A stretch of 64,000 bases of DNA from Sphingomonadaceae bacterium (GTDB taxonomy: Bacteria; Pseudomonadota; Alphaproteobacteria; Sphingomonadales; Sphingomonadaceae): positions 43,449 to 107,448 of the forward strand of contig DATMRS010000017.1 in assembly GCA_035566015.1 (NCBI GenBank), read 5' to 3'. The notes under the pieces were generated by a model. That model was not told where the DNA came from. It worked only from the letters and a program-made list of their open reading frames with translations, and ran no database searches. This document shows, piece after piece, positions 3,787 through 63,850 of this stretch. The translations under genes were made by a program, and so were the position numbers. Each line of letters starts with the position of its first letter. Positions within the stretch are counted from its first letter, which is position 1.

Positions 3787-3868
3787 CCTTCCGGCGGTTA
3801 AGCCCGAGATTCGGCCACGTCAACGCAGAGGAGAAGCCTGCCCACGCTTTTCTGCGGCCGCGGCAGCC

Positions 3869-6029: not shown

Positions 6030-6319
6030 CTCGTCGCTCCATCCTCGGGTGGCGATATCCGCTGCAAGGCCCATGCCGGCGGGAACTCGGGATCGTCGGC
6101 GCCCTTGCCGTTACCGGATCACTCGACAGTAAACCGTAAATCCAGTTTTTTCGGTTTTCAAGCGATAAAACCCATATAGGATCGCGTGCATTTTCGTGCT
6201 GTGCGGCCCTTGAAGTGGGCGCCTGGACGAGAGTGACGCCCATTCGATTGTCGTACTTGACGCGGAAGTATCGCTTGCCGTAACTCTAAAACCTAGACGA
6301 ATGGCATAATAGGGCCTGC

Positions 6320-48586: not shown

Positions 48587-48805
48587 ATGGCCAAGGAAGA
48601 ACTGCTTGAAATGCGCGGGTCGGTTGTGGAACTCCTCCCCAACGCGATGTTCCGCGTGCGGCTGGAGAACGATCATGAGGTTCTCAGCCATACCGCCGGC
48701 AAGATGCGCAAGAATCGTATTCGCGTGCTCGTCGGCGACGAGGTGCTCGTCGAATTGACGCCTTATGATCTGACCAAGGGTCGGATCACCTACCGCTTCA
48801 AATAA
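48587..48805 (+). CDS. infA: translation initiation factor IF-1
   Basis: 72 aa from [72 protein letters not shown] (within ORF 48488..48805). Confidence 0.95.
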
Positions 48806-48818
48806 TCGGACTGCTGTC

Positions 48819-49400
48819 GTGCGGCTGGTCCTTGCCTCCGCCAGCCCGCGCCGTCGCGACCTGCTCGCGCGTCTCGGCATCGTGCCCGATGTGATCGATC
48901 CGGCCGATATCGACGAGACGCCGACCAAGGGCGAACTGCCGCTGCCTTATGCGCGGCGCATGGCCGCGGCGAAGGCGCAGGTGGTGGCCGAACGCTATCC
49001 CGGCAGCCTGGTGCTGGCCGCCGACACGGTCGTCGCCGCCGGACGGCGCATCTTGCCCAAGGCAGACACGGAGGCCGAGGCGCGCGCCTGCCTCACTTTG
49101 CTGTCAGGCCGGCGTCATCGCGTCATTTCCGCTTTGTGCCTGATCGATGGCAGCGGACATGCGCGGCATCGCGAATCGATCAGCATCGTCGCCTTCACGC
49201 GCCTGACCGATACGGATATCGCGGCCTGTCTCGCGACCGGCGACTGGCAGGGTAAGGCCGGCGGCTATGCGCTCCAGGGCCGGGCGGAAGCCTATGTACG
49301 CTTCCTCTCAGGCAGTCATTCGGGCGTGGTCGGCCTGCCGCTATTCGAAACCCGCGCCCTGCTCTCCGCCGCCGGCTATGCGCCGCAAGCGGATGGCTGA
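48819..49400 (+). CDS. maf: Maf-family nucleoside triphosphate pyrophosphatase
   Basis: 193 aa. LVLASASPRRRDLLARLGI...LAADTVV...GKAGGYALQG. Confidence 0.88.
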   Translation: MRLVLASASPRRRDLLARLGIVPDVIDPADIDETPTKGELPLPYARRMAAAKAQVVAERYPGSLVLAADTVVAAGRRILPKADTEAEARACLTLLSGRRHRVISALCLIDGSGHARHRESISIVAFTRLTDTDIAACLATGDWQGKAGGYALQGRAEAYVRFLSGSHSGVVGLPLFETRALLSAAGYAPQADG

Positions 49401-50400
49401 GTGGCTCTATGAAGCCGGCATTGGCGAGGCGCGTGCGGCACTCGTCGAAGGGGATGCGATCGTAGAGGCACGAATCGAGCGCGAGGAGGAAGGGCCACGT
49501 GTCGGCGCCGTGCTGTCGGCGCGTTTGGTGCGGACGATGCCGGAAACGAAGCGGGCGCTCGTCACGCTCGAAAGCGGCGCACCGGCCATGCTGCGCCCCG
49601 TGCCGATGCGGATCGGCGAAGGCGCCCCCCTGCGCGTGACCATCACGCGTGAGGCGATTCCGGAGGAAGGCAATCCCAAACCCGCCTTGGCGCGGCTCGC
49701 TACAGAGGAGGAGGCGCCCTCCCCCGGCCCGTCGCTGCACGACAGGATCGTCGCCACTGGCCATCTGGTTCGCCAGTTGGATGCGCATGAGAGCGACGCT
49801 CTGGAGGCGGCCGGCTGGTCCGAAGTCTTGGAAGAAGCACACGGCGGCCTTATCGTCTTCCCCGGCGGGCTGCTTCGGTTGGCGCTGACTCCGGCCATGA
49901 CCCTGTTCGATGTCGACGGCTCGCTTGCCCCCGGGGCGCTGGCGATCGCCGGGGCAGCGGCCGCGGCACGCGCGATCCGGCGGCTCGACATCGGCGGTTC
50001 GATCGGCATCGATTTGCCCAGCGCACAGGGCAAGGCCGATCGCCAGGCTGCGGCGGCGGCGGTGGACGCATGGCTGCCGCCGCCATTCGAACGTACCGCC
50101 GTCAACGGCTTCGGCTTCCTCCAGATCGTCCGCCCGCGCCCGCGCGTGTCGCTGCCCGAGCGGATTCGCGTCGATCCGGTGCTGACGGCGGCGCTTGCGC
50201 TCCTTCGGCGCGCCGAGCGCGCGGGGGGCGCCGGCCGGCGCACGATCGCAGCCGCCCCTGTCGTTATCCGTCGTCTCGCCGCCGCGCCCCAATGGCTGGA
50301 GATGCTGGGGCGCAGAACGGGCGCGGCGATCGACTTGCGAGAGCTGCCGGGCGCGCCCATATCCGGCGGCGATGTCCATGTCGAACACCCGCCGGCCTAA
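49393..50400 (+). CDS. ribonuclease E/G-family protein (short form)
   Basis: In-frame part of ORF 49267..50400 from MAEWLYEAGIGEARAALVEGDAIVEA. ...LTLFDVDG...GGSIGIDLP...NGFGFLQIVRPR. The family call is from memory of the maf-rng-yacG synteny in alphaproteobacteria. Confidence 0.6.
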   Translation: MAEWLYEAGIGEARAALVEGDAIVEARIEREEEGPRVGAVLSARLVRTMPETKRALVTLESGAPAMLRPVPMRIGEGAPLRVTITREAIPEEGNPKPALARLATEEEAPSPGPSLHDRIVATGHLVRQLDAHESDALEAAGWSEVLEEAHGGLIVFPGGLLRLALTPAMTLFDVDGSLAPGALAIAGAAAAARAIRRLDIGGSIGIDLPSAQGKADRQAAAAAVDAWLPPPFERTAVNGFGFLQIVRPRPRVSLPERIRVDPVLTAALALLRRAERAGGAGRRTIAAAPVVIRRLAAAPQWLEMLGRRTGAAIDLRELPGAPISGGDVHVEHPPA

Positions 50401-50593
50401 GCGCGCCGTCTGCCCTTATTGCGGCGACCCCGCCGTCGCCGAGCATGCGCCTTTTTGCAGCAGAGGCTGCCGCGATCGCGATCTTCTCAAATGGCTTGGC
50501 GAGGGCTATCGCCTGCCCGGCCGCCCCGCGACGAGCGACGGTGAAGAAATCGACGCCGATGGGCTGGACAGCGAGCGGGACGGCCCTCTATAG
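50372..50593 (+). CDS. yacG: DNA gyrase inhibitor YacG (zinc-binding)
   Basis: In-frame tail of ORF 50195..50593. ...CPYCGDPAVAEHAPFCSRGCRDRDLLKWLGEGYRLPG is the four-Cys YacG motif. Confidence 0.8.
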   Translation: MSMSNTRRPKRAVCPYCGDPAVAEHAPFCSRGCRDRDLLKWLGEGYRLPGRPATSDGEEIDADGLDSERDGPL

Positions 50594-50609
50594 GCCCCCC
50601 GACGCTCCG

Positions 50610-50685
50610 GCCCAGGTAGCTCAGTTGGTAGAGCACGTGACTGAAAATCACGGTGTCGGCGGTTCGATTCCGTCCCTGGGCACCA
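50610..50685 (+). tRNA. tRNA-Phe (anticodon GAA)
   Basis: GCCCAGGTAGCTCAGTTGGTAGAGCACGTGACTGAAAATCACGGTGTCGGCGGTTCGATTCCGTCCCTGGGCACCA. Near-identical architecture to E. coli tRNA-Phe. Anticodon loop CTGAAAA. Confidence 0.93.
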
Positions 50686-50786
50686 TCCTTCCGTTCAGCA
50701 GCATCCGCCACCATCCTTGAAACCCTAGGTATTCTGCGGTATTTCACCTTTGTAGCGTTCGCAGACGTTCGATTGCGTTCGCTCAC

Positions 50787-50857
50787 ATACCCCCAATCTC
50801 GGGGGTGTTTTTGGGGGTATATCGCTGGGGTATCCTTCAAACGGGCAAAATACCCCC
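50787..50857. repeat. cluster of five GGGGGT(A/G)T motifs (both orientations) between tRNA-Phe and int
   Basis: ATACCCCC 50787-50794, GGGGGTGT 50801-50808, GGGGGTAT 50813-50820, GGGGTAT 50827-50833, ATACCCCC 50850-50857. Confidence 0.8.
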
Positions 50858-50868
50858 AGCTACGGGGC

Positions 50869-52119
50869 ATGGGCATGGCGCTCACCGATATAGCTGTTCG
50901 CACCGCGAAGCCGGGCGATAAGCCTTACAAGCTGTTTGATGGCGGCGGGCTGCACGTTGCCGTCACCCCGGCCGGAGGGAAACTCTGGCGGCTCAAATAC
51001 CGCCTTGCGGGCAAGGAAAAGCTGCTCTCGCTGGGAGCCTATCCGGCAACGTCACTATCTGCCGCTCGCAAGGCCGCCGATGCCGCCCGCGTCGATATGG
51101 CGGCGGGCGTCGATCCCTCGCTGGAGAAGCGCCGCGCCAAGGCCAAGGCCATACAAGGCGCTGGCGACACGTTCGCGGCCATTGCGGCGGAATATATCGC
51201 CAAGCGCAAGCGCGACGGGGATCGGCCCTATTCGCCTGCCACGGCGGCCAAGGTCGAATGGTTAGCCGCGCAGTTGACGCCTGCCATCGGCACCATCCCC
51301 GTTGCGTCGATCGAACCGAGCGACATTCTGGCGGCCCTGCGCAAGCTGGAGCGCAAGGGAAATCTGGAAACAGCGCGGCGATGCCTGCAATTCGCTTCGC
51401 AAGTGCTGCGCTACGCCGTCGCCACCGCGCGCCTCGCCAGCGATCCCAGCCGCGACTTGAAGGGCGCTCTTACCGCGCCGCGCGTGAAGCACCATGCCGC
51501 GATCATCGAGCCGGCGAAGCTGGGCGGCTTGCTCCGCGCCATTGACGGCTATCAGGGCGACGCCGTGACGCGGCTGGCGCTCCAGCTCGCGCCCCATCTA
51601 TTCGTCCGCCCCGGCGAACTGCGGCAGGCCCGTTGGGAAGAACTGAACCTGGCGGCGGCGACTTGGATGATCCCGGCGGAGAAAATGAAGATGCGCCGCC
51701 CCCATGCCGTCCCGTTATCCCGGCAAGCGCTTGCCATTCTTGACGCTCTACGGGCGATCACGGGCGGCGAGGAAGGCTATCGCGGCTATGTGTTCCCCTC
51801 GCTGCGGACGCGCCAGCGGCCGATGAGCGAGAACACGCTCAACGCGGCGCTGCGGCGGCTCGGCTATTCCAGCGACGAAATGACAGCGCACGGCTTCCGG
51901 GCGACGGCTTCCACGCTGTTGAACGAAAGCGGCAAATGGAGCGTCGATGCGATCGAACGCGCGCTGGCGCACGGCGACAGCGACGCGGTGCGCGCCGCCT
52001 ACCATCGCGGGGCGCACTGGAAAGAGCGCGTGGCGATGGCCCAATGGTGGAGCGATTATCTCGACACCCTGCGCAAGGGCGCGGACATTGTGCCGTTTCC
52101 CGGCCGGGAGGTGGGATAG
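50869..52119 (+). CDS. int: tyrosine-type site-specific integrase, P4/CP4-57-like (DUF4102 N-domain)
   Basis: In-frame part of ORF 50653..52119 from MGMALTDIAVRTAKPGDKPYKLFDGGGLHVAVTPAGGKLWRLKYRLAGKEKLLSLGAYP. C-terminal ...HGFRATAST...ALAHGDSDAVRAAYHRG catalytic region. Confidence 0.92.
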   Translation: MGMALTDIAVRTAKPGDKPYKLFDGGGLHVAVTPAGGKLWRLKYRLAGKEKLLSLGAYPATSLSAARKAADAARVDMAAGVDPSLEKRRAKAKAIQGAGDTFAAIAAEYIAKRKRDGDRPYSPATAAKVEWLAAQLTPAIGTIPVASIEPSDILAALRKLERKGNLETARRCLQFASQVLRYAVATARLASDPSRDLKGALTAPRVKHHAAIIEPAKLGGLLRAIDGYQGDAVTRLALQLAPHLFVRPGELRQARWEELNLAAATWMIPAEKMKMRRPHAVPLSRQALAILDALRAITGGEEGYRGYVFPSLRTRQRPMSENTLNAALRRLGYSSDEMTAHGFRATASTLLNESGKWSVDAIERALAHGDSDAVRAAYHRGAHWKERVAMAQWWSDYLDTLRKGADIVPFPGREVG

Positions 52120-52483
52120 AGTTTCACCGGACTCTCGGTCCGATGGAAGCGGGCTGGCGACAGGATAGCCCCACGAGGCTGGCCCTGCCACATTCGGGGC
52201 GCTTGGTGGGCGTCCAGCCTAGGCCGCGCCACCATCGACAATCCTATTTCGGCTGATCCCTTGACCCGCTTCACCGCCACCCCTGTCAACTGCTCGACGC
52301 GCTGCTAGCGACAGCCGCCGCGCGCGGACTGGAGGCGACGAAATGACGCTCAGAACCACACCTATTCTTCTTTAATTCTCTTAATAATATCAGTATTATA
52401 TAGGCACAATCAGTACCCGTTTTTGCGTGTTTTGCAGCCTCCGAAATGATAGAAGTTTGAGCTGTTTCTCGGAGGTTAGCACG

Positions 52484-53170
52484 ATGTCTCCAATCCCGAA
52501 TCGTCGCCATTTTCTCGCTGGTGGATTCGCGGCGCTTTACGCCTGCGGCGGGTTTAGCTCGCTTCATACGGCTCTCGCCAGACCGGTGCTCTTGCGTTCC
52601 TTCGCCGGGAACCGGACCGCTTCAAGCTTCGCTTCCTGCCTATTCCGGTACGAAGATGTCATGCCCAACGCCTTGGTCAGCGCCATTGAAACCGAGCTTA
52701 GCCATATTGTTGTGCAGCACGACAGTGAGGCGGAGGAGCGCCGAAGCGCCGAATTCTTCGCCTGGCTCACGGTCCGCGTGATCGCGCCGGCTTATCTACG
52801 GCGCGCCGGGTATGACCAGTTGGCGGCAGATTGCGAAAATCAGTCCGATTTGCGGGACGAAGCGCGCCCTTCGGCTACGGCACAACACACCATCGGCAAG
52901 CAATATGCCTACTCCCTGACTCCTCGACTCGCGAGCTTCGCTTATGGCGCGAGCGCCCACGCCTCGACAGCGACGTTCTATGCCGGCCATGAGGACATCG
53001 AAACCGTTATCGAGACGGGCCATTATTGCGCCCTCGCGCTGCTCGAAGGCTTCTCTTACGAAGACGCCTCGCCGGCCGACGCGGCGCAAATCTGGGCCTT
53101 TGCCGTGCGGGCGATCAACGCGGATCTCCAATTGAGTCAGGCAGATATGCCCGGCATGGTCTACGGCTGA
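52484..53170 (+). CDS. hypothetical protein with twin-arginine (Tat)-like signal peptide
   Basis: In-frame part of ORF 52427..53170 from MSPIPNRRHFLAGGFAALYACGGFSSLHTALA. GGAGG SD 8 nt upstream. No family recognised. Preceded by a locally AT-rich promoter-like patch. Confidence 0.6.
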   Translation: MSPIPNRRHFLAGGFAALYACGGFSSLHTALARPVLLRSFAGNRTASSFASCLFRYEDVMPNALVSAIETELSHIVVQHDSEAEERRSAEFFAWLTVRVIAPAYLRRAGYDQLAADCENQSDLRDEARPSATAQHTIGKQYAYSLTPRLASFAYGASAHASTATFYAGHEDIETVIETGHYCALALLEGFSYEDASPADAAQIWAFAVRAINADLQLSQADMPGMVYG

Positions 53171-53406
53171 ACGTGCCGGCCTGATCACGTCGGGCCGAAG
53201 CTCCTACGCGATGCGCGCCGCCTACCTCCACGGGCCACATTAGAAATAGCGCATCGCGGTGGTGCGGTGACCATCCCGACATGCTGTGAACGGAGGCGAA
53301 GGTTGCGCCGCTACAGGGCGAGCCTTGGCGGCATCCCCGGCTGGCGTTAAGTCTTGGGTGAAGGCGGGGGTCATGCCCGGCTCTAACGCTTTGCTCTGGG
53401 GGGTAA

Positions 53407-56400
53407 ATGTCCACGCCACTTCGCCGATTGCTTGCCCAATATCGGGCGGCATCCCGTACCGAACGCGAGAAGGGGACGTATTTCGAGCGGTTGGCGGTGG
53501 CCTTCGTCAAGCACGATCCGGGCATGGTGCAGGAATATGAGGATGCCTGGCTGTTCTCCGATTGGGCGAAGGCGCACCGGCTGGACGGGCGGGATATTGG
53601 CATTGATGCCGTCGCTAAAATCCGGGGCGAGGATAGCTTTTGCGCGATCCAGTGCAAATTCTATGCGGAGGGGTATCGCATCCAGAAAGGCGATATCGAC
53701 AGTTTTCTTAGCTCATCACAGACCAAGCATTTTTCCCGTGGCCTGATCATCGAAACGACTGGCGCGCCGTGGAGCGTCAATGCCACAGCGTTGCTGGACG
53801 ACCTGAATGTCACCACGCTTGATCTGGAGCGGCTTGAGCAGAGCCCGATTGATTGGGAGGCTTGGTTTCAGCGCGATGAAATCAAAGTCGCCCCGCCCAA
53901 AGTGTTGCGAGAGCACCAGCGTGACGCCCTCGCAGCCGTTCGGGAGGGGCTTGCGGAGGCCGATCGCGGCAAGCTGATCATGGCGTGCGGCACGGGCAAG
54001 ACGTTCACCAGCCTGAAAATCGCCGAGGGACAGGTTGGCGCGGGCGGCACCGTGCTGGTGCTGGTGCCGTCGCTGGCGTTGATGAACCAGACGATCCGCG
54101 AATGGACAATAGACAGCACGACGCCGCTGCGTTCCTATGCGGTGTGTTCCGATGTTCAGGTGGGCCGGCGGACGCGCGACAAGGATGACGTGGCGGAGGT
54201 TGACCTCCACGACCTGGACTATCCCGCCACAACCAACGCGGCCAAGCTGGCGTCCCGGTCCTCCTATCCGGCGGGCGACCGGATGACGGTGGTGTTTTCC
54301 ACCTATCAGTCGATTCAGGTCATAGCCGACGCGCAAAAGCGGTACGGCTTTCCCGAATTTGACCTGATCATCTGCGATGAGGCGCATCGCACGACCGGCG
54401 CGACCTTGGCGGGTGAAGACGAAAGCAATTTCGTCAAAATCCATGATCAGGACTTTATCGCAGGCCGGAAGCGCCTCTACATGACCGCCACGCCGCGCGT
54501 CTTTGGCGAGGCGGCCAAGGCCAAGGCGGGCGAGGTATCGGCCGCGCTGGCGTCGATGGACGACGAAGCGCTGTATGGCAAAACGCTGTTCACCCGTGGC
54601 TTTGGCTGGGCGGTGGAGCATGGCCTGCTGACCGATTACAAGGTGCTGGTGCTGGCCGTGGATGAAGCCATGGTGTCAACCGGCGTGCAGAACCGGCTGG
54701 CGGATGGCTCCAGCGAAATGAAGCTGGACGACGCGACCAAGATCATCGGGTGCTACAAGGCGCTGACCAAGAACGGCCAAAAGGGCGAGTTTGCCAACGA
54801 CGGCCAGCCGATGAAACGCGCTTTGGCGTTCTGCAAGGATATCGCGTCATCGAAGCTGATCCGGTCCGAATTTGCAGCGGTGGTCAGTGAATATCTGGCG
54901 TCCGATGAGGGCGAGGCAGCGATGGGCGACGCGGAGGCGCTGCTCTGCGAATTGCGCCATGTGGACGGCACGATGGGCGCGAAGGAACGCGGCGCGCATC
55001 TGGAATGGCTGAAGGAACAGCATGGCGAACGGATCGCGCGCATCCTAACCAACGCCCGCTGTCTGTCCGAAGGCGTGGACGTGCCCGCGCTCGACGCCAT
55101 CCTGTTCATGCACCCGCGCAAGAGCCAGATTGACGTGGTGCAGTCCGTCGGGCGGGTGATGCGTCGCGCGCCGGGCAAAACGATGGGCTATGTCATCCTG
55201 CCGATCGGCGTGCCCGCCGGGATGACCCCCGAACAGGCGCTGGCCGACAATGAGCGCTACCGCGTCATCTGGCAGATATTGAATGCGCTGCGCAGCCACG
55301 ATGAACGCTTCGATGCGATGATCAACAAAGCCGATCTTGGCGTGGACATAAGCGACCATATCGAGGTGATCGCCGTCAGCAACAAGCTACCGAGTGGCAA
55401 GACGACCACGCAGACCGGGCATATTGGCGCGGGCGGCGGTGGCGATGGCGAATCGTCTGAAGGCGACAGCACGCCCAAGGCCGCACCAGCCTTCCAGAAC
55501 GCCTTTGTGTTTGATGAATTTTCCAGGGCGATCATGGCGAAGATCGTCAAGAAATGCGGGCGGCGCGACTATTGGGAGGATTGGGCGGGCGACATTGCCA
55601 CAATCGCCCAGACCCATATCACCCGGATCAGCGCGCTGGTGCAAAAGCCGGGCACGTCCGAACGCGCGGCGTTCGAGGCTTTTCTGGCTGAAATCCGCGA
55701 TGACCTGAACGACAGCATCACCGAAGCCGACGCGATCGAAATGCTGGCGCAACATCTTATCACCCGCCCAGTGTTCGACGCGCTGTTCGAGGGGCACAGC
55801 TTCACCGGCAATAATCCGGTCTCGAAAGCCATGCAGACGGTGCTGGCGGCGCTCGACGAGCATCGGCTGGATAAGGAGGCGGACAGCCTCCAGCGCTTCT
55901 ATGACAGCGTGCAGCGGCGCGCGGCGGGCATTGATAATGCCGAGGCCAAGCAAAAGATCGTCGTCGAACTGTACGACAAGTTTTTCCGCAACGCCTTCCC
56001 CAAGATGACCGAGCGGCTGGGCATCGTTTATACACCGGTGGAGGTGGTGGACTTCATCCTCCATTCGGTGAACGAGGTGCTGCAATCCGAATTTGGACAG
56101 ACGCTGGGCAGCAAGGGCGTCCATATCCTTGATCCCTTCACCGGCACCGGCACCTTCATCACGCGGTTGCTGCAAACGGGCCTCATCAAGCCCGACGAGC
56201 TGGCCCACAAATACGCCCATGAAATCCACGCCAACGAGATCGTGCTGCTGGCCTATTACATCGCCGCGATCAATATCGAGGCGGTCTATCACGGCATCAT
56301 GGGTGGCAATTACGTGCCGTTCGAGGGCATCTGCCTGACGGACACGTTCCAGCTTTACGAGCAGGAACGCGATCTGATCGCACATCTGATGCCCGAAAAC

Positions 56401-57735
56401 AGCAACCGCCGCACCCGGCAAAAGGCGCTCGATATTCGCGTCATCATCGGCAACCCGCCGTATTCGGTGGGACAAGGCAGCGCGAACGATAATGCCGCCA
56501 ATGTCGATTATCCCCGATTGGACGGGCGAATCCGCGAAACCTATGCCAAGCGATCCAAGGCGACCAACAAGAATGCGCTCTATGACAGCTATATCCGCGC
56601 GATCCGCTGGGCCAGCGACCGGATCGGCGACGCGGGCGTGGTGGCCTATGTGTCCAACGCCGGATGGCTGGACGCCAACACCGCCGATGGCCTGCGGAAA
56701 TGTCTGGCGGATGAATTTGCCAGCATTCATGTGTTCCATTTGCGGGGCAATCAACGCACGTCGGGCGAGCGATCCCGGCGCGAAGGCGGCAAGATTTTTG
56801 GCAGCGGCAGCCGCACGCCCGTCGCCATCGCGCTGCTGGTCAAGAACCCCGCCGCCGCCGAACATGGCCAGATATATTTCCACGATATTGGCGATTATCT
56901 GACCCGCGAGGACAAGCTGGCGATCATCGCCCGGTTCAGCAGCATTGAAGGCATCGCGCGCGCGGGCGGCTGGCAGACGATCACCCCCGATGAGCATGGC
57001 GATTGGTTGGGGCAGCGTGACAAGGCGTTCGACGCCTTCCTGCCGATGGGGGACAAGGACAACAAATCGGGTGCGGTACTATTTGCGAACTATTCGAGAG
57101 GTATTGAAACTGGGCGCGATGCGTGGTGCTACAACGCTAGCCGCGAAACCGTGGCCCACAATATGCGCGCGATGATCGGCTTCTATAATGCTGAACTGGC
57201 GCGGTTCGACGCTGCCCACCCCCATGCCGACCGTAAGGCACGTGGCGACGCGGTGGACGGGTTTATCGACAATGACCCGACAAAGATCAGTTGGACTAGC
57301 AGCCTGAAAAGCGATTTGGCCAAAGGCGATGCGTTCACCTTTGAGGCATCAAACCTGACCCCCAGCCTCTATCGCCCCTTCACCCGCCAATGGCTCTACT
57401 ACACCGGCGATACCGTTCATCGTGTAGGCCAGATGCCGCGTATCTTTCCGATGGGCGAAGCTGCGACCAATCGGGTGATTATGGTGAAGGCACGTCCAGC
57501 CGAAGGCGGGCAGCTTGCCTTGATGGTGGACACCATCCCCGAACTGCAAACCGACGGCGGCACGCAATGTTTTCCTGAATACCTCTATGAGGCAGCCAAA
57601 GGTGTAGCCAGAACAGAACAGAACAGAACAGAACAGAACAGAACAATTATACCCTCCATTAACGGAGGAGCAAGAACAAAATCTGGTGATTTGCACGTCG
57701 GGCGGGGGGGCAGAAAGTCGCCTTCAGCGTATTGA
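53407..57735 (+). CDS. Type ISP-like restriction-modification enzyme: Mrr-like PD-(D/E)xK nuclease, SF2 helicase/translocase and gamma-class N6-adenine methyltransferase. Truncated before the C-terminal domain in the current frame.
   Basis: 1442-aa ORF. Nuclease: GIDAVAK...AIQCKFY. Helicase: ACGTGKT, ICDEAHRTTG, MTATPR, QSVGRVMR. MTase: DPFTGTGTF then IIGNPPYS. Then ...QCFPEYLYE, after which the frame runs through (CAGAA)7 into non-homologous sequence and stops. Confidence 0.88.
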   Translation: MSTPLRRLLAQYRAASRTEREKGTYFERLAVAFVKHDPGMVQEYEDAWLFSDWAKAHRLDGRDIGIDAVAKIRGEDSFCAIQCKFYAEGYRIQKGDIDSFLSSSQTKHFSRGLIIETTGAPWSVNATALLDDLNVTTLDLERLEQSPIDWEAWFQRDEIKVAPPKVLREHQRDALAAVREGLAEADRGKLIMACGTGKTFTSLKIAEGQVGAGGTVLVLVPSLALMNQTIREWTIDSTTPLRSYAVCSDVQVGRRTRDKDDVAEVDLHDLDYPATTNAAKLASRSSYPAGDRMTVVFSTYQSIQVIADAQKRYGFPEFDLIICDEAHRTTGATLAGEDESNFVKIHDQDFIAGRKRLYMTATPRVFGEAAKAKAGEVSAALASMDDEALYGKTLFTRGFGWAVEHGLLTDYKVLVLAVDEAMVSTGVQNRLADGSSEMKLDDATKIIGCYKALTKNGQKGEFANDGQPMKRALAFCKDIASSKLIRSEFAAVVSEYLASDEGEAAMGDAEALLCELRHVDGTMGAKERGAHLEWLKEQHGERIARILTNARCLSEGVDVPALDAILFMHPRKSQIDVVQSVGRVMRRAPGKTMGYVILPIGVPAGMTPEQALADNERYRVIWQILNALRSHDERFDAMINKADLGVDISDHIEVIAVSNKLPSGKTTTQTGHIGAGGGGDGESSEGDSTPKAAPAFQNAFVFDEFSRAIMAKIVKKCGRRDYWEDWAGDIATIAQTHITRISALVQKPGTSERAAFEAFLAEIRDDLNDSITEADAIEMLAQHLITRPVFDALFEGHSFTGNNPVSKAMQTVLAALDEHRLDKEADSLQRFYDSVQRRAAGIDNAEAKQKIVVELYDKFFRNAFPKMTERLGIVYTPVEVVDFILHSVNEVLQSEFGQTLGSKGVHILDPFTGTGTFITRLLQTGLIKPDELAHKYAHEIHANEIVLLAYYIAAINIEAVYHGIMGGNYVPFEGICLTDTFQLYEQERDLIAHLMPENSNRRTRQKALDIRVIIGNPPYSVGQGSANDNAANVDYPRLDGRIRETYAKRSKATNKNALYDSYIRAIRWASDRIGDAGVVAYVSNAGWLDANTADGLRKCLADEFASIHVFHLRGNQRTSGERSRREGGKIFGSGSRTPVAIALLVKNPAAAEHGQIYFHDIGDYLTREDKLAIIARFSSIEGIARAGGWQTITPDEHGDWLGQRDKAFDAFLPMGDKDNKSGAVLFANYSRGIETGRDAWCYNASRETVAHNMRAMIGFYNAELARFDAAHPHADRKARGDAVDGFIDNDPTKISWTSSLKSDLAKGDAFTFEASNLTPSLYRPFTRQWLYYTGDTVHRVGQMPRIFPMGEAATNRVIMVKARPAEGGQLALMVDTIPELQTDGGTQCFPEYLYEAAKGVARTEQNRTEQNRTIIPSINGGARTKSGDLHVGRGGRKSPSAY

Positions 57736-58525
57736 TGAGCAACGCCGTACCGAGCCTCCACATGGTGGATATCGAGGGCAGCCAATGCTTCCCGATGTTT
57801 CTCTACGAAACGGAGGGCGGGCAATGAGCGATACGCAAGCCAGCCTCTTCGAGCAGGATTCGCCTCAGCCCCGAATCGTGCGCCGCGACGGCATTACCGA
57901 CGAAGGGCTGGCCCATTTCCAGGCGGCCTATCCCGAAGAGGCGATCAGCAAGAAAGACCTGTTCTACTACATCTATGGCCTACTCCATTCAGAGGACTAT
58001 CGCGCTCGTTTCGCCGACAATCTCTCAAAGCAATTACCGCGCATTCCCCGCGTGAAAACCGCTGCTGATTTCCGGGCCTTTTCCAAGTCAGGGCGTGCGC
58101 TGGCGGGATTGCATGTGAACTACGAACAGGTGGAGCCTTACCCCGTTACAATCGCTGAGGGTGATTTTCGGCTGGCCAATATCCCCGACCCGGTGAAATT
58201 CTACCGCGTCGAGAAAATGAAATTTGGCGGCAAGCGTCCGAATCTCGACAAAACGACCGTCACCTACAACACCAACATCACCATGACCGGTATCCCGCTG
58301 GAAGCCTATGAGTATGTGGTGAACGGCAAGCCCGCGCTGGAATGGGTGATGGAGCGCCAGTGCGTGAAGACCGACAAGGCCAGCGGCATCGTCAACGATG
58401 CCAATCGCTATGCCAACGAAACCGTGGGCGACCCCGCCTACCCCCTACTGCTGTTCCAACGGGTGATCACGGTAAGCTTGGAAACGATGAAAATCGTGCG
58501 GGCGTTGCCGAGGCTGGAGATTTAA
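57608..58525 (+). CDS. C-terminal (Type ISP C-domain-like) segment of the R-M enzyme in the +1-shifted frame. Also translatable on its own from ATG 57824.
   Basis: This frame is open from 57608, just after a TAG at 57605-57607, through the repeat to the stop at 58525. From 57824 it reads MSDTQASLFEQ...RRDGITDEGLAHFQAAYPEE..ISKKDLFYYIYGLLHSEDYRARFADNLSKQLPRIPRVKTAADFRAF...GRALAGLHVNYE..., which is the usual continuation after the QCFP..LY.. motif. GGAGGG lies 7 nt before ATG 57824. Confidence 0.75.
   Translation, partial: PEQNRTEQNRTEQLYPPLTEEQEQNLVICTSGGGAESRLQRIDEQRRTEPPHGGYRGQPMLPDVSLRNGGRAMSDTQASLFEQDSPQPRIVRRDGITDEGLAHFQAAYPEEAISKKDLFYYIYGLLHSEDYRARFADNLSKQLPRIPRVKTAADFRAFSKSGRALAGLHVNYEQVEPYPVTIAEGDFRLANIPDPVKFYRVEKMKFGGKRPNLDKTTVTYNTNITMTGIPLEAYEYVVNGKPALEWVMERQCVKTDKASGIVNDANRYANETVGDPAYPLLLFQRVITVSLETMKIVRALPRLEI
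57609..57645 (+). repeat. perfect pentanucleotide microsatellite (CAGAA)7 plus CA inside the R-M coding sequence
   Basis: Read directly: ca gaaca x7 at 57609-57645. Translated RTEQNRTEQNRT in the upstream frame. Confidence 0.97.
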
Positions 58526-58701
58526 GGCCTGTCGCGCGCGCGACTAGCATCTTCCGCGCGATATCTCTGTTGTCCGACACGAGATCAACGGCTGGAAATG
58601 GCCGGGCTTCACCCTTTGCTATCGATGGGCGCTGGCAGAGTTCGCTAGCGTCCGCTATGTTCCGCATATGTACCAGACGTTCGCTTGGAAGGGGCGAGCC
58701 A

Positions 58702-59541
58702 ATGACAGGATATGCAGGCATGGACGATAATGGAAGCGCGGCGGCGGCTCTTGCGATCATTCGAGAATGGGAATGGGAGTACGAGGATTTTGATGGCTTC
58801 GGTACGACGCCGAAATGGCTTTCTCTGAACGAAGCGATGAACTCGCTTGCGTTCGCGGGTCATGCTGATCCGGCTCGCGCGTTCCTTAGGCTCCTGGCCG
58901 ATGGTGCGCTGGTGACGCGGGGCAAATACCAGTGGCGGGCTTTTCGAGCGGGTAACCATTTCGACGGAGAGGGAAGCGGGGGCATTCCACCGGCACGCTG
59001 GCTTGTAATCGTCGATTCCACTCCTTTTGACATGTTTGATCTGCCAAAGCTTGGGTTATCAAACATGGAGCCAGGTGATTGGGACTGGCGGAATGGTTGC
59101 TGCACCGTCGCGGCGGCCTCTGACGGCGATCCAGCCAAATGGTGGGAAACCGGATATGCCGAGGAATGGTTTTCCGCTTGGGATATCGAAGTGCATTGCC
59201 CGTCAGTCGATTTCCCGAAGAGCGATAGTGCCCCTGCTGTCGAGAATGACGCTTGCGAGCCTGCCGAACCTCTGGTGCCCATCATTGGTCATAGCAAAGG
59301 CCGTCCGCCCAAATACGATTGGGAAGGCGCGTTAGCCCATGTCACGGCTGTAGCGAACACGCCGGACGGCCTGGAAACCGGCCCTGGCGCACAGGCTGCA
59401 ATTGAGCGCTTGATGGCCGACCATTTCACGCGGACCAGCAATGATGGAAGCGGCCCTTGCGAGTCCGAAATCCGCAAGCGGGCGAGCCGTGTGATGAAGG
59501 CAATCGAGGCGTTGAAGCCGTCGCTTTCCAAGGTCGCGTAA
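58702..59541 (+). CDS. hypothetical protein (Trp/acidic-rich N-part, conserved-looking GRPPKYDW C-part)
   Basis: In-frame part of ORF 58342..59541 from MTGYAGMDDNG. GGAAGGGG SD upstream. No family recognised. Confidence 0.6.
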   Translation: MTGYAGMDDNGSAAAALAIIREWEWEYEDFDGFGTTPKWLSLNEAMNSLAFAGHADPARAFLRLLADGALVTRGKYQWRAFRAGNHFDGEGSGGIPPARWLVIVDSTPFDMFDLPKLGLSNMEPGDWDWRNGCCTVAAASDGDPAKWWETGYAEEWFSAWDIEVHCPSVDFPKSDSAPAVENDACEPAEPLVPIIGHSKGRPPKYDWEGALAHVTAVANTPDGLETGPGAQAAIERLMADHFTRTSNDGSGPCESEIRKRASRVMKAIEALKPSLSKVA

Positions 59542-59706
59542 ACGGCGCTTGGCGGGAAGGCCGATAAATCCCGCCGCGCATGATAATCAGCCTTTCCCGG
59601 CCCTTATGGGCCTTTATCGGCGGACAACCGCAGCCATCCGCCAGCATCCTTTCGCATACCGCCGAGGCATTTCGCCACGGCGCAATCGCGAAGGAAACGG
59701 CCAATC

Positions 59707-59892
59707 ATGGCAATTCAGGAACAGGGTCCGCCTCTCGCCTACAGTATTAAGGAGGCTTGTCGCGTTTCGTCATTGGGGCGCACCCGCCTTTATGCCCTTA
59801 TCAACGAGGGCCGGCTCGAAAGCCGCAAGATCGGCAAGCGCACACTGATCCCCGCCGTAAGCTTGCGCCGCCTGATCGAGGGGGAGGCGTGA
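59707..59892 (+). CDS. AlpA/MerR-type helix-turn-helix DNA-binding protein (excisionase/regulator of integrative elements)
   Basis: 61 aa. YSIKEACRVSSLGRTRLYALINEGRLESRKIGKRTLIPAVSLRRLIEG. AGGAA SD upstream. Confidence 0.8.
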   Translation: MAIQEQGPPLAYSIKEACRVSSLGRTRLYALINEGRLESRKIGKRTLIPAVSLRRLIEGEA

Positions 59893-59895
59893 GCC

Positions 59896-60078
59896 ATGGC
59901 CCAGACATACGAAGCCCCGCACATTGGCGGGGCGTCGCGGAACAACTGTGGTGGCTGCTTCCGTGCTTTTTCTACCCCGCGCGTCTTGCAGACGCAATTC
60001 CTGATCGCGGCCTGCCAGGTCCGCCCCGAACTGGCGGCGATGCTGGCTGCGTTCGTCTTCGGGGGAGGCGGGGCATGA
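59896..60078 (+). CDS. small hypothetical protein (60 aa)
   Basis: The ORF begins 4 nt after the alpA-like stop and ends in an ATGA overlap with the primase start, so it is positioned for translational coupling. No homology recognised. Confidence 0.35.
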   Translation: MAQTYEAPHIGGASRNNCGGCFRAFSTPRVLQTQFLIAACQVRPELAAMLAAFVFGGGGA

Positions 60079-60998
60079 TAGACCTTCACGCCATCCGCGC
60101 TGCCAATCCGCTGCCTTCGATTGTGGGGGCAACAGTGAAGCTCCAGCGCGCGGGCCGCGAGTATAAGGCTTGCTGCCCCTTTCATCCCGACAGGTCGCCC
60201 TCCTTCACCATCTTTGCGGATGGCGAGCGCTTCCATTGCTTCGGCTGCGGGGCATCCGGCGACGTGCTGGATTTTGTGCAGCGGGCGTATGCCGTGCGGC
60301 TACCCGAGGCGGCACGGATGCTCGGCGCGGGCGATATGCCCCGGCGGCCCATGCCTTCGAGCCCCGAGGCTTCGGACGGCGCCGACACCCGCGCGAAGCG
60401 TGCGCGCGCCCTGGCGATCTGGCACCGGGCCAAGTCGGCGGCCGGGACGCTGGCAGAGGCCTATTTGCGCTTCCGGGGCATCCTTCCCCCCTATCCGCCT
60501 GATTTGCGGTTCCTGCGCCTTCGCTGTGGCAATCTGGGGGCGTTGCCGTGCCTTGTCGCTGCGGTGCGCGACGTGGCGGGCACGGTGATCGGCATTCAGC
60601 GGATCTGGCTTGCCGGCGATGGGCAGGGAAAGGCGGCCATTACCACCCCCAAACGATCGCTGGGCCAGGTGAAGGGCGGCGCAATCCGGCTCGGCAAGCT
60701 GGACGGCACGGGCTGGCTGACCGTCTGTGAAGGCCCCGAAGATGGCCTGTCGCTGCGGAACATGCTGGGCGGCCCGGTTTGGGTGGCGGCGGGGGCGACG
60801 TTCCTGCCCGCGATGCAGTTTCCCCCCGAGGTGCGAACGATCGTGATCGGGGCGGACAACGACCCGGCCGGGTGCAGGGCGGCAGAGGATGCGGCGCAGG
60901 CCTATGCCGGGCGCGGGCTATCCGTCCGCATCATCCGGCCCCTTTCTGGCTGCAAGGACTTCAACGACGAATTGAGGGGGCGCGGCAATGGCTGCTAA
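60075..60998 (+). CDS. DNA primase: CHC2 zinc finger plus Toprim-like domain
   Basis: In-frame part of ORF 59757..60998 from MIDLHAIRAANPLPSIVG. CCPFHPDRSPSFTIFADGERFHCFGCGASGDVLDF zinc finger. ...VCEGPEDGLSL...GADNDPAG Toprim-type acidic motifs. Confidence 0.85.
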   Translation: MIDLHAIRAANPLPSIVGATVKLQRAGREYKACCPFHPDRSPSFTIFADGERFHCFGCGASGDVLDFVQRAYAVRLPEAARMLGAGDMPRRPMPSSPEASDGADTRAKRARALAIWHRAKSAAGTLAEAYLRFRGILPPYPPDLRFLRLRCGNLGALPCLVAAVRDVAGTVIGIQRIWLAGDGQGKAAITTPKRSLGQVKGGAIRLGKLDGTGWLTVCEGPEDGLSLRNMLGGPVWVAAGATFLPAMQFPPEVRTIVIGADNDPAGCRAAEDAAQAYAGRGLSVRIIRPLSGCKDFNDELRGRGNGC

Positions 60999-62520
60999 CC
61001 CGAGCATACAAGAGCGGCTGGCAGCGGCGGACCCGTTTGCCGGTTGGCCCGATCCGATTCCGCTGCGGGACGAACTACCGCCGGTGCTGGCCTTCCCACC
61101 CGATCTGTTGCCGAGCCAATTGCGCGGCTGGGTGCTCGACATTGCCGAGCGCATGAATTGCCCGGTTGATCTGGTGGCCATCCCGGCCATGGTTTCGGCC
61201 GGGGCGCTTATCGGGCGGCGCATCGGCATTCGACCCCAGCGACGCACCACATGGCTGGAAGTGGGCAATCTGTGGGGGTGCGTCGTCGCCCGGCCCGGCT
61301 GCATGAAAAGCCCGGCGGCAGCCGAAGCGCTTGCCCCGATCCGGGGACTGGAAGCCAAAGCGGCGGAATGGAACAAGGAGGCCGCCGCCCGGTTCGAGGT
61401 AGCCGAGGCCGTGCACAAGCTGGAGCGCGGCGACGCCGACAAGGCCGCGCGAAAGCGGCTGAAAGACGAGGGCGCGGACTCCGCGCGGAAGGTGCTGGCG
61501 GCGCTTGTGACGCCCGAGCCGCCATCGGAGCGGCGGTACTTCACAAGCGACGCCACGGCGGAAAAGCTGGGCGAGATATGCGCGGCCAATCCGGATGGCA
61601 TCCTGGTTCATCGCGACGAACTGGTGCCGCTCTTCACCGACCTGGACAGCCCCGAAAAGGCATCGGCGCGTGGATTCTTCCTGACCGGCTGGGGTGGGCA
61701 GGAAGGCTACACCTTCGATCGCATCATGCGCGGCACCGTGCGCGTGCCAGCGGTCAACCTGTCGGTATTCGGGACGACCCAGCCGAGCCGCATCGCCGCC
61801 TATATGCGCGACAGCATCCGGCGATTCGATGATGGCATGGTCCAGCGTTTGCAGTTGCTGGCCTGGCCGGATTTCACGGGCGAATTTCGAGAGGTGGACC
61901 GCTACCCGGACAGCGAGGCGCGGCGGCTGGCGCATGAATGCTATGCCGATCTGGCCGGTCTCAACCTGCACGAAATCGGCGCGCAACGGGATGAAGTCGA
62001 CGGTCTGGGAGCGGTGCCCTTCCTGCGCTTTGCCGATGATGCGCAGGATATTTTCACCGAATGGCGGGCAGCGCTTGAAGCGGAATTGCGAGGCCAGGAT
62101 TTGGCCCCGGCGCTGGTGGCCCATTTGTCCAAATATCGCGGGCTGATCCCCCGGCTGGCCCTAATCTGCCATCTTGCCAACAATGCCTACGGCCCGGTTT
62201 CGATTGAGGCGGTACGGCAGGCTTTGGGCTGGGCCGATTATCTCCGATCCCATGCCCGGCGCGCCTATGCCTCGACCATGATCGATAATGCCGAGGCGGC
62301 ACGGGCGATCTGGCGGCGCGTCCACAGAGGTGATCTGCCCCAGCCGTTCACCGCGCGCGACATTCGCCAAAAGGGATGGTCTGGCCTGACAGAGCAAAGC
62401 CGGATCGAGGCCGGCCTGGAAGCGCTTACCGATGCCTACCGCCTCCGGGCTGAAAAGGTCGATACCGGGGGGCGGCCGTCAACACTCTATCGCGCCAATC
62501 CCAAGGCCATGCACGCATGA
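60988..62520 (+). CDS. DUF3987 (YfjI-like) protein, putative replicative helicase partner of the primase
   Basis: 510 aa. ...WPDPIPL...P.FP.DLLP..LR.WV..IAE..., ...ERRYFTSDATAEKLGEI...GILVHRDEL..., typical of DUF3987 proteins of integrative elements. Confidence 0.75.
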   Translation: MAANPSIQERLAAADPFAGWPDPIPLRDELPPVLAFPPDLLPSQLRGWVLDIAERMNCPVDLVAIPAMVSAGALIGRRIGIRPQRRTTWLEVGNLWGCVVARPGCMKSPAAAEALAPIRGLEAKAAEWNKEAAARFEVAEAVHKLERGDADKAARKRLKDEGADSARKVLAALVTPEPPSERRYFTSDATAEKLGEICAANPDGILVHRDELVPLFTDLDSPEKASARGFFLTGWGGQEGYTFDRIMRGTVRVPAVNLSVFGTTQPSRIAAYMRDSIRRFDDGMVQRLQLLAWPDFTGEFREVDRYPDSEARRLAHECYADLAGLNLHEIGAQRDEVDGLGAVPFLRFADDAQDIFTEWRAALEAELRGQDLAPALVAHLSKYRGLIPRLALICHLANNAYGPVSIEAVRQALGWADYLRSHARRAYASTMIDNAEAARAIWRRVHRGDLPQPFTARDIRQKGWSGLTEQSRIEAGLEALTDAYRLRAEKVDTGGRPSTLYRANPKAMHA

Positions 62521-62558
62521 ACGCCCCCGACAGGAACCCCCGAAACCAACAAAAGCCC

Positions 62559-62576
62559 TTTTGGGGGTTTTGGGGG
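62559..62576 (+). repeat. tandem TTTTGGGGG x2
   Basis: cttttgggggttttgggggc read directly in the DUF3987-downstream intergenic region. Shares the G5 core with the island-end motifs. Confidence 0.7.
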
Positions 62577-62616
62577 CAACCCTCCCCGGCACTTTCCCGA
62601 AAATCGAGGTGAACCC

Positions 62617-63312
62617 ATGACGGCACGCAAGAGCAAGGCGAAGCCCCCAGTGGACAAGGCAACGCGCCCGCCAAAAACCCCAATCATTATTGAGGAAGGC
62701 GAAGAGACAGCGGACGCCATCACGCGTGCAACGATCGCCCCGGCGCTACGGCACGGACAGCTCGCCCTGGAATTGGCCAAGCCATTTTTTAGCGGGATGC
62801 CCAAGGATCAACAGCCCGCGCTGGCGCACTTCGTAAGCGAGATCGCGACGCGGGCCAGCGAAGCCGGCGGGGGCGATATGGCGCTGGCCAGCCGGCTACT
62901 CGCCGCGCAGGCCATGACGCTGGATGGCATCTTCACCGAATGCGCCCGGCGATCGGCGCTCAATATGGGCGAATATATCAACGCCTCCGAACGCTATATG
63001 CGCCTGGCCCTCAAGGCGCAGGCCAATTCCCGTGCGACGATCGAAGCGCTGGCGAAGCTGCATAGCCCGCGCGAACAGACGGTGCGGCACGTTCACGTCA
63101 ACGAAGGCGGCCAAGCCGTCATTGCCGATGAATTTCACCATCACGCGGGGGGCGCAGAAAATGCACAATCGACCGAACAACCCCATGCAACCCGAACCGG
63201 CGCGATTGGCGGCCGCCCCGCGCTGTCTGGCCCGGACCCGCTCGGGGAAGCCTTGTCGCTCCCCGGCGGTGAAGGGGCGCAAGCGGTGCCGAATGCACGG
63301 CGGCAAGGGTAG
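62617..63312 (+). CDS. hypothetical protein of the island backbone
   Basis: 231-aa ORF with GAGGTG SD. The helical part ...RLLAAQAMTLDGIFTECARRSALNMGEYINASERYMRLALKAQANSRATIEALAKLHSPREQTV is of a kind I recall next to primase/DUF3987 modules. The family name is unknown to me. Confidence 0.55.
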   Translation: MTARKSKAKPPVDKATRPPKTPIIIEEGEETADAITRATIAPALRHGQLALELAKPFFSGMPKDQQPALAHFVSEIATRASEAGGGDMALASRLLAAQAMTLDGIFTECARRSALNMGEYINASERYMRLALKAQANSRATIEALAKLHSPREQTVRHVHVNEGGQAVIADEFHHHAGGAENAQSTEQPHATRTGAIGGRPALSGPDPLGEALSLPGGEGAQAVPNARRQG

Positions 63313-63439
63313 CGGCGCGCCCAAAGCCAACCGCAACGCCTGGAAACACGGCGCGAGGGCCGCCAGCACGCGCGATACGCTCGCGTTGATCCGTGCACTT
63401 GGCGAAATGCTCGACGATAGCAGGGGAGAAGCCTGCTAG
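63161..63439 (+). CDS. small basic protein with CRxxxxxGxxCRMHGG...GAPKxNxNAxKHG motif
   Basis: In-frame part of ORF 62924..63439 from MHNRPNNPMQ. It overlaps the previous ORF by 152 nt in another frame. The motif recurs in small proteins of alphaproteobacterial mobile elements (recollection, unverified). Confidence 0.45.
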   Translation: MHNRPNNPMQPEPARLAAAPRCLARTRSGKPCRSPAVKGRKRCRMHGGKGSGAPKANRNAWKHGARAASTRDTLALIRALGEMLDDSRGEAC

Positions 63440-63677
63440 CCGATCCGTGGCCATGCACCCCTCCGGGGGGGCTTCAAAGTTCAGCGCTCGCGAAGCGGAC
63501 ACCGCAGTGAACCTGTGTTAAATCGCTAAGTCAGTTTTTGTCAGATTTTTGCACGCGCGACCCCATGAAAGGCGGACGGACGCATGGAGGCGGTATCGCG
63601 CCAGCCCCCTCGCATTGGCGCGAAAGGCGGCCTGAACCGCGCATCCATCATTCATCCCCGTTCGCCACTATCCAGCA

Positions 63678-63702
63678 TTTTTGGGGGTATTTTTGGGGGT
63701 AT
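63678..63702 (+). repeat. tandem TTTT(T)GGGGGTAT x2 at the distal end of the island
   Basis: catttttgggggtatttttgggggtattctg read directly. Same GGGGGTAT core as the int-proximal cluster. Confidence 0.85.
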
Positions 63703-63850
63703 TCTGTAAAATTGCTCTATAATAAATGGCTAGTTTCAGCTATTTTTTAGCATTAATGTGATGCCGTCCCTGTCCCCGAATAGCGACATCTTGCCAGTCG
63801 GCGCCGGTTCCTTCACTGATTGATCAACGATCATCAGGAGAAAGCCGGAC

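Follow-up and report, generated by a model that had tools for sequence, protein, structure and literature searches.

A tRNA-Phe-associated integrative island of a Sphingomonadaceae bacterium with a variable slot carrying a putatively repeat-switched Type ISP restriction–modification gene

The PICMIs (phage-inducible chromosomal minimalist islands) of the Vibrionaceae are recognized in the SatelliteFinder model by a tyrosine or serine integrase (PF00589, PF00239 or PF07508), an AlpA protein (PF05930 or PF12728) and a DUF3987 (PF13148) or DUF5906 ‘primase’ (PMC10803314). Here we describe an island with a comparable core, located behind the only tRNA-Phe gene of a Sphingomonadaceae bacterium (assembly GCA_035566015.1, contig DATMRS010000017.1) within a stretch of 64,000 nucleotides, i.e. 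contig positions 43,449 to 107,448 of the forward strand; this stretch is called the window, and coordinates refer to it unless another contig is named. We read the locus as a site-specific and chimeric island of a sparse Sphingomonadaceae family that is likely spread by a helper phage, with a copy that is probably fixed here and a cargo gene that is switched by a repeat, and we give this reading as a whole a probability of about 55 %.

The limits of the island follow from an empty-site allele. An initial annotation, made from the letters of the window, had placed the right end at 63771 and proposed looking for an unoccupied tRNA-Phe site. A metagenome scan with the right-flank O-methyltransferase as query retrieved such a site on contig L074, in which bases 1-1999 correspond to window 48689-50685 (99.1 % identity) and bases 2003-4903 to window 63773-66673 (98.4 % identity), with CAC alone separating the two matches. 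Because L074 joins both flanks without the element, the island is window 50686-63772, i.e. 13,087 nt, and the right end chosen earlier was correct to within one base. The site is thus found both occupied and empty in populations that differ by only 1-2 %. The outcome that had been named as speaking against an island, i.e. conservation in all relatives with no empty site, is not what we found: besides L074 being empty, none of 16 family-level relatives that share the left gene and tRNA-Phe has an island backbone gene within 8 kb, and one of the 16 bears an unrelated integrase. Right-flank synteny was not conserved among 60 family or order relatives. Since an empty allele exists, 15 of the 16 relatives lack the element at tRNA-Phe and the backbone was present in 10 of 401 family genomes (9 of 112 genera), the locus is a discrete integrative island that was gained by horizontal transfer and occupies the 3′ end of the tRNA-Phe gene, which is single copy among the 43 tRNAs of the genome. 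It shows the marks of a tRNA-integrating genomic island, i.e. the empty allele, an integrase adjoining the tRNA and a tRNA-end repeat at the far end, the latter reduced to 9 nt exact (13/16) with 10 nt lost at attR.

As first proposed, a P4-type integrase follows closely behind an intact tRNA-Phe, its start codon lying 183 nt past the tRNA called by ARAGORN and Rfam. Along its whole length it shares 35 % identity with IntA of Escherichia coli CP4-57 (E 1e-78), and its closest match is the integrase of L156, an element at tRNA-Thr (78 % identity). Six of the eight GGGGGTRT matches in the window, 2.1 being expected in 64 kb, lie at the two island ends, and the related element L046 has its own variant of the motif, TTGGGGGCCAC, at both its ends; this clustering fits arm-type sites for an integrase with an arm-binding domain.

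Comparison of the attachment (att) sites suggests what happened at the right end. L074 gives attB as …GATTCCGTCCCTGGGCACCA-CAC-TCCCCGAATAGC, while attL reads …GATTCCGTCCCTGGGCACCA-TCCTTCC… and attR …GATGCCGTCCCTG-TCCCCGAATAGC. The last 16 nt of the tRNA (50670-50685), CCGTCCCTGGGCACCA, would be the identity block, with a later deletion at attR, where the 10 nt GGCACCACAC expected in an intact site are missing, including the last 7 nt of the block. A search with the 3′ end of the tRNA gave no long direct repeat; only CCGTCCCTG recurs, at 63764-63772, a 9-mer match that is not significant alone and is validated only via the empty allele and the family layout. The tract at the island end is a tRNA-like block, as attP would predict, and the attP junction expected in reads is …GATGCCGTCCCTGGGCACCATCCTTCC…. 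L160, a related element at tRNA-Phe, has exactly the 16-nt segment as a perfect direct repeat, and the attR layout of the island is the same as in L046. The alternative that integration at a 3-nt core (TCC) produced attR was ruled out by the tRNA-like GATgCCGTCCCTG block together with the intact 16-nt repeat of L160.

Recombination on the residual 9 nt would strip the last 7 nt from the tRNA; because the gene is single copy and an essential tRNA would thus be truncated, the present copy is probably locked in the chromosome and unable to excise. In five elements the attR match breaks off at one shared position, 4 nt into the 3′ strand of the acceptor (window 63760-63772, L049:6404, L046:8942, L052:13819 and L056, reverse complement, 20221), with gaps of 10, 4, 3, 3 and 1 nt, respectively. 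This shared stop point may be the footprint of abortive recombination or of selection for lock-in.

The backbone, consisting of the genes for a helix-turn-helix (HTH) protein of the HTH_17 family, a primase, a DUF3987 protein, u3 and an HGGxSTG zinc-ribbon protein, recurs in Novosphingobium, Sphingomonas and Sphingomonadaceae metagenome-assembled genomes (MAGs), and family members with a P4-type integrase sit at tRNA-Gly(CCC), tRNA-Gly(UCC), tRNA-Thr, tRNA-Gln and tRNA-Phe. The minimal form comprises about 6 kb, i.e. the integrase with putative arm-type sites, HTH_17, the CHC2-Toprim primase, DUF3987 and the u3-HGGxSTG pair. The compact relative L156 is homologous at the DNA level over window 50617-52115 and again from 59705 onwards; because the homology is interrupted from the integrase stop to the HTH start, the 7.6 kb in between represent a true variable slot, in agreement with the int-proximal position assigned to the cargo in the initial annotation.

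Slot length, taken as the integrase-to-HTH distance in ten elements (the window and nine relatives), ranges from 0.65 to 7.6 kb. The short slots of L156 (0.65 kb), L045 (0.7 kb), L158 (0.9 kb) and L161 (1.0 kb) have no contents listed, that of L046 (2.2 kb) holds a PDZ protein and a u2-like open reading frame (ORF), that of L044 (3.9 kb) pieces of an MmeI-like Type IIG enzyme, and that of the P0007 contig (5.7 kb) the same Type ISP gene as the window, whose own slot contains u1, this Type ISP gene and u2; in L047 (2.9 kb) and L043 (6.3 kb) the contents were not identified. Restriction–modification (R-M) genes, either Type ISP or MmeI-like, are thus found in the slot of 3 of 10 elements, i.e. 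in two of the nine relatives and in the window. Slots are lower in GC than the backbone. The Type IIG fragments of L044 (4828-6363) lie in several frames and are apparently a pseudogene.

That the slot carries defence cargo holds in so far as a Type ISP R-M gene is present, with a reading frame that is truncated in both available assemblies. The gene matches LlaGI at E 2.8e-54, and the full LlaGI/LlaBIII domain set is present. Its frame is broken within the target recognition domain (TRD) at a perfect AGAAC repeat, the highest-scoring tandem repeat in the window, and the second assembly, L051, is identical over 23.4 kb except for 6 instead of 7 AGAAC units. Six units give a large ORF of 1416 aa and seven one of 1442 aa, whereas five units give 1702 aa and eight 1707 aa; one extra AGAAC unit accordingly restores the 1707-aa frame. 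A period-5 tract stands at the same point, after GGTQCFPEYLYE, in 14 of the best 120 ISP homologues, with a unit that varies by lineage (AGAAC, GCACA, GCAGA, GTCCA and others) and downstream frames that are distributed 5 : 5 : 4 across the three frames; at least 14 protein clusters share its position. A tract whose unit is no multiple of 3, which varies in length between near-identical genomes and which occurs in all frames among relatives has the features of a gene that is phase-variable by simple sequence repeats (SSRs), and these point to a repeat-switched Type ISP cargo. All SSR-type ISP genes examined occur in mobile contexts. One of them, on L055 (7187-15707), is the immediate upstream neighbour of a Cas9 gene, and the same contig has MobA/MobL and TraD genes.

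The tract is followed by a second copy of a TRD segment, termed copy B, and by the C-terminal TRD half, which was called as a separate gene of 233-245 aa in L051, L052, L054, L055 and L056 as well. Across seven loci, the variable columns of copy B fall 8/8/29 on the three codon positions, and its synonymous to non-synonymous changes number 240 : 128 in its own frame vs 37 : 322 and 35 : 322 in the other two. Because the changes are mostly third-position and synonymous in the own frame only, copy B is maintained by purifying selection, and the alternative that it is a relic of module replacement was ruled out on the same grounds. In this strain copy B is broken by a G7 run (57704-57710) that is longer by one G than its equivalent, CGGGGGN, in each of the six relatives; the extra G may reflect a mutation, slippage at a second tract or a homopolymer error.

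The slot also carries evidence of a composite origin. Between u1 and the Type ISP gene lies a degenerate 3′ remnant of a second integrase gene, of which 57 nt are 79 % identical to the resident gene (51983-52039), with tblastn aligning integrase residues 368-393. It ends 125 nt before the ISP start codon, a spacing equal to that between integrase and ISP gene in L052, and both L052 and the P0007 contig have an intact integrase immediately upstream of the ISP gene at this spacing. Because the 84-nt remnant sits where the intact integrase precedes the ISP gene in these two, the island is a chimera, in which an upstream module of integrase and u1 was fused to an element consisting of integrase, ISP gene and backbone. 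Tandem integration followed by deletion would be the simplest route. The C-terminal 75 aa of u2, the last slot gene, are 47 % identical to the same-position ORF of L046; no convincing family match was obtained in Pfam, PHROGs, NCBIfam or PADLOC for u1, u2, the 60-aa ORF or most slot ORFs of relatives.

All listed island genes are on the + strand, and the backbone ORFs are full length with intact domains (Table 1). The overall gene order was described correctly in the initial annotation, with the correction that its three cargo ORFs are four, one R-M gene being split into two. Its ‘AlpA-type HTH’ is indeed a small HTH gene, while the assignment to AlpA did not hold: the protein matches the HTH_17/excisionase models (TIGR01764 at 28.4 bits, just short of the cut-off of 28.8), and neither a Pfam Phage_AlpA (PF05930) match nor, by BLASTP, similarity to E. 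coli AlpA was found. The gene is conserved in L043-L047, L156, L158 and L161, and its product is a candidate recombination directionality factor and activator. The following 60-aa ORF has a 44-aa ORF in its position on the P0007 contig. The DUF3987 protein is 34 % identical to a ‘YfjI family protein’ of small Bartonella plasmids and 21 % identical to E. coli YfjI; it is presumably a replicative helicase or initiator, because its relatives sit on small non-mobilizable plasmids.

Two backbone ORFs do follow DUF3987 as reported, and they overlap: the u3 tail shares about 150 nt (63161-63312) with the HGGxSTG gene in a different frame, an arrangement kept in 7 loci and seen in every family member (L043-L049). 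The u3 stop codon falls within the codons of the conserved GGKGSG motif, and third-position GC content indicates a change of coding frame near 63040. For u3, 4499 cluster representatives were counted at E≤1e-3, yet Pfam has no family for it. On L082 (9668-11212), a related metagenome contig, a further u3-HGGxSTG pair adjoins tRNA-Ser(UGA), 2.7 kb from the O-methyltransferase homologue of that organism. Promoter and terminator scans gave no excess over the shuffled expectation. The AT-rich patches pointed out earlier are real (GC 0.30 at 52360-52420, 0.42 at 57594-57690 and 0.26 at 63700-63760), and they are enriched in the island, not exclusive to it as had been claimed, since the flanking core (51 kb) contains five 60-nt windows of similar AT richness.

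Table 1. Features of the island and of its attachment region in the window
Feature	Position	Strand	Assignment and source
tRNA-Phe(GAA)	50610..50685	+	ARAGORN, Rfam
Four GGGGGTRT motifs, candidate arm-type integrase sites	50787..50857	two per strand	between tRNA and integrase gene
Tyrosine integrase, P4/CP4-57 IntA type, 416 aa	50869..52119	+	Pfam PF13356 Arm-DNA-bind_3, PF22022 Phage_int_M, PF00589 Phage_integrase
u1, cargo ORF, 228 aa, N-terminal twin-arginine-like motif NRRHFL (Tat-signal-like)	52484..53170	+	gene call in L051
Degenerate 3′ remnant of second P4-type integrase gene, catalytic-Tyr region, in-frame stops, 84 nt	53199..53282	+	repeat search, tblastn
Type ISP R-M gene, large ORF, 1442 aa: Mrr nuclease, SF2 helicase, coupler, N6-methyltransferase, first half of TRD	53407..57735	+	Pfam; PADLOC REase_MTase_IIG 1902 bits
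Perfect (AGAAC)7 tract at ISP frame break	57609..57645	+	TRF score 74
TRD segment copy B, VIC..QCFPMFLYE, ATGA stop/start overlap at end	57686..57827	+	alignment of 7 loci
C-terminal ISP TRD half, 233 aa, GGAGG upstream of ATG	57824..58525	+	Pfam Type_ISP_C positions 158-336
u2, orphan ORF, 273 aa	58720..59541	+	gene call; weak phrog_13283 match
HTH_17/excisionase-family protein, 61 aa, first backbone gene	59707..59892	+	PF12728 E 6e-10
60-aa ORF	59896..60078	+	gene call, no family match
Primase, 307 aa: CHC2 zinc ribbon, DUF7146, Toprim_3	60075..60998	+	Pfam; phrog_510 DNA primase 2.4e-45
DUF3987 (YfjI-family) protein, 510 aa	60988..62520	+	PF13148 E 3e-77; phrog_2373 DNA helicase
u3, backbone ORF, 231 aa, predicted four-helix core and disordered tail	62617..63312	+	conserved in 6 loci
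HGGxSTG zinc-ribbon protein, 92 aa, C-x9-C..C-x2-H	63161..63439	+	NCBIfam NF041373 44.7 bits, cut-off 29
Two tandem TTTTTGGGGGTAT repeats, candidate arm-type sites of attR	63678..63702	+	repeat and motif scans
attR core remnant GATgCCGTCCCTG, preceded by AT-rich 60 nt	63760..63772	+	attB (L074)/attL/attR comparison

With respect to lifestyle, the integrase and the HTH_17 protein would excise the element, and the primase and the DUF3987 protein would replicate the excised circle. In line with the initial annotation, no capsid, relaxase, type IV secretion system (T4SS) or transposase family was found in any island ORF with the four databases named above. Because capsid and conjugation genes are absent, spread would most likely depend on a helper phage, as for a PICMI-like minimal satellite, and such dependence is plausible for the island family. 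This reading is favoured, on indirect evidence, because the core equals the PICMI definition save for the fis site, because a short motif of the HGGxSTG zinc ribbon recurs in some small terminases, and because the decayed relative L049 holds a phage HNH gene and a small terminase gene inside its att repeat. In addition, a 49 %-identical DUF3987 protein is encoded beside a TerL-like gene on an IMG/VR contig.

Several observations weigh against it. The gene pair of L049, a Novosphingobium MAG with the element at tRNA-Phe (5209-6091; HNH phrog_2323, 3e-26, and small terminase phrog_83, 5.8e-9, between the HGGxSTG gene and the 16-nt att repeat), could be what remains of a tandem prophage at a locus in decay. 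The small-terminase matches of the HGGxSTG protein in PHROGs are weak (E about 1e-4 to 1e-5) and cover about 35 aa of the zinc ribbon only, while the AlphaFold model of u3 has a pLDDT of 58 and no structural match in BFVD. No packaging, capsid-interference or cos/pac function is recognizable in this copy, cos not having been searched for. A scan of viral contigs with the single DUF3987 protein found none and one with the family alignment a single 5-kb contig; viral relatives amount to one distant case in IMG/VR and one weak match in sequenced phages. The 10-nt loss at attR, on which the fixation of this copy depends, is deduced from one empty allele only. Finally, we know of no helper phage for the island. 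The original proposal of a helper-dependent or mobilizable element with a defence slot is partly supported, namely for the discrete island and the cargo slot, while packaging, capsid-interference and oriT/relaxase functions were not found in this copy.

Among the other explanations, a domesticated defence island that is no longer mobile and is either kept for its cargo or decaying is rather unlikely in our view. It would account for the shortened attR, which shares 9 nt with attL and at which excision would destroy the sole tRNA-Phe, for the deletion chimera with its integrase remnant, for the extra G in copy B relative to six relatives within an ISP gene truncated in both assemblies, and for the heavy decay of the tRNA-Phe relative L049. 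The backbone ORFs, however, are all full length with intact domains, the arrays of arm sites are undamaged at either end, populations 1-2 % apart include occupied as well as empty alleles, and a change of one repeat unit reopens the ISP frame. Moreover, domestication concerns the present copy and is compatible with an origin as a satellite.

Conjugative transfer after excision as an integrative mobilizable element (IME), from a cryptic oriT and with relaxase and T4SS supplied by a co-resident plasmid or integrative and conjugative element (ICE), the primase serving establishment in the recipient as on numerous conjugative plasmids, seems quite improbable. Although CHC2/DUF7146/Toprim primases are common on conjugative elements and same-clade SSR-type ISP genes occur on contigs with MobA/TraD or relaxase genes (L055, L057), no relaxase, type IV coupling protein (T4CP) or recognizable oriT was found in the island or in any family member examined, the plasmids with DUF3987 relatives are typed non-mobilizable, and L049 bears HNH and small-terminase genes, not Mob genes. 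The weak match of the primase to the NCBIfam TraI C-terminal region (E 1.3e-9) is far below the cut-off. By content the island shows no ICE or IME marker, i.e. no relaxase, no T4CP/T4SS and no recognizable oriT, with its right end bounded by the empty site. That we see merely the end of a larger ICE or prophage continuing beyond 64000, as the initial annotation had considered and as the end of the window 228 nt past the right end and of the contig 2.8 kb further might allow, is refuted because L074 joins tRNA-Phe directly to the sequence from 63773, ending the island at 63772, and carries the same right-flank O-methyltransferase, ATP-dependent ligase and short-chain dehydrogenase/reductase genes at 98-99 % identity.

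Returning to the helper-phage reading, a bolder version of it is possible, and we advance it tentatively: the family would be a hitherto undescribed lineage of minimal phage satellites that integrate at tRNA genes of Alphaproteobacteria, with u3-HGGxSTG as a helper-hijacking module for packaging specificity, that ferries a three-state Type ISP enzyme. Both copies of the TRD segment would be under purifying selection, and the tract would toggle between a truncated form, a tandem-segment-plus-split form and a fused form, i.e. a switch of activity or specificity and not a simple ON/OFF switch. Further islands are probably present in the same genome (G000), which has additional P4-type integrase loci: C6 (129713-132150) has a second P4-type integrase (54 % identical), 1 kb downstream of which lies an HTH_17 gene, and C23 (106016-107199) bears a third copy that is frameshifted.

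If the family is phage-dependent, PICMI-type minimal satellites would extend to the Alphaproteobacteria, and the very widespread, unnamed u3-HGGxSTG pair would gain a candidate role. The cargo suggests that islands of this kind disseminate a hypermutable Type ISP restriction system among bacteria of the environment, and the damaged attR illustrates a route by which a mobile defence island may become fixed.

Regarding the cargo, the gene shares the full domain set of LlaGI, also with respect to LlaBIII, and its intragenic tract with a unit not divisible by three, together with its length polymorphism, resembles phase-variable mod and hsd genes (PMC5909438, PMC7383803). It differs from the known SSR-containing Type I and Type III R-M genes in that the tract is located within the TRD, flanked by two diverged copies of one TRD segment, and is followed by a separately initiated C-terminal ORF. 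In the literature searched, SSR phase variation was found for Type I and Type III systems and in no Type ISP case.

With regard to the element itself, the PICMIs are similar in the three-gene core, the lack of capsid-remodelling and packaging genes, the size of the minimal relatives (about 6 kb) and the possible defence gene. In terms of the PICMI model, the integrase carries PF00589 with PF13356 and PF22022, the AlpA component is represented by PF12728 (E 6e-10) and not by PF05930, and the ‘primase’ by PF13148 (E 3e-77). Unlike PICMIs, the island is not downstream of fis but at the 3′ end of tRNA-Phe, with relatives at tRNA-Gly, -Thr and -Gln, its host belongs to the Sphingomonadaceae and its length is 13.1 kb; it adds a separate CHC2/DUF7146/Toprim primase and the u3-HGGxSTG pair. 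PICMIs are also marked by excision and replication that a helper phage induces and by packaging in the particles of that phage.

P4 and P4-like satellites resemble it as tRNA-integrated elements with an integrase, an AlpA-like regulator and a primase/helicase replication module, whereas in the island primase and helicase are separate genes of other families, and no homologues of sid, psu, delta or epsilon were found in any island ORF with Pfam and PHROGs, a cos site not having been searched for. The Gram-negative phage-inducible chromosomal islands share the organization of integrase, regulator and pri-rep genes, and L049 with its small terminase and HNH genes is reminiscent of packaging-redirecting satellites; in contrast to them, no clear terS, ppi, rpp or capsid morphogenesis (cpm) gene was recognized in this copy, which has only the 92-aa zinc ribbon with a short motif of some small-terminase N-termini.

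In CP4-57 of E. coli K-12 (ssrA-intA-yfjH-alpA-yfjI...), a P4-type integrase likewise lies beside a small RNA gene and is followed by a short slot, a small HTH gene and DUF3987, with anti-phage cargo (AbpAB, RnlAB) in the same element. However, its DUF3987 protein is only 21 % identical and the HTH similarity undetectable, its defence cargo lies downstream of yfjI and not between int and alpA, and the CP4-57 stretch examined has neither a CHC2-Toprim primase nor an HGGxSTG gene. The locus offers a small island with integrase, Xis-like, primase and DUF3987 genes outside the Vibrionaceae and enterobacteria whose boundaries are resolved by an empty-site allele, with a defined cargo slot and visible module exchange between sibling elements. 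By its gene content, it is a family-level member of the integrase/AlpA-like/primase/DUF3987 kind of element, akin to both PICMIs and CP4-57.

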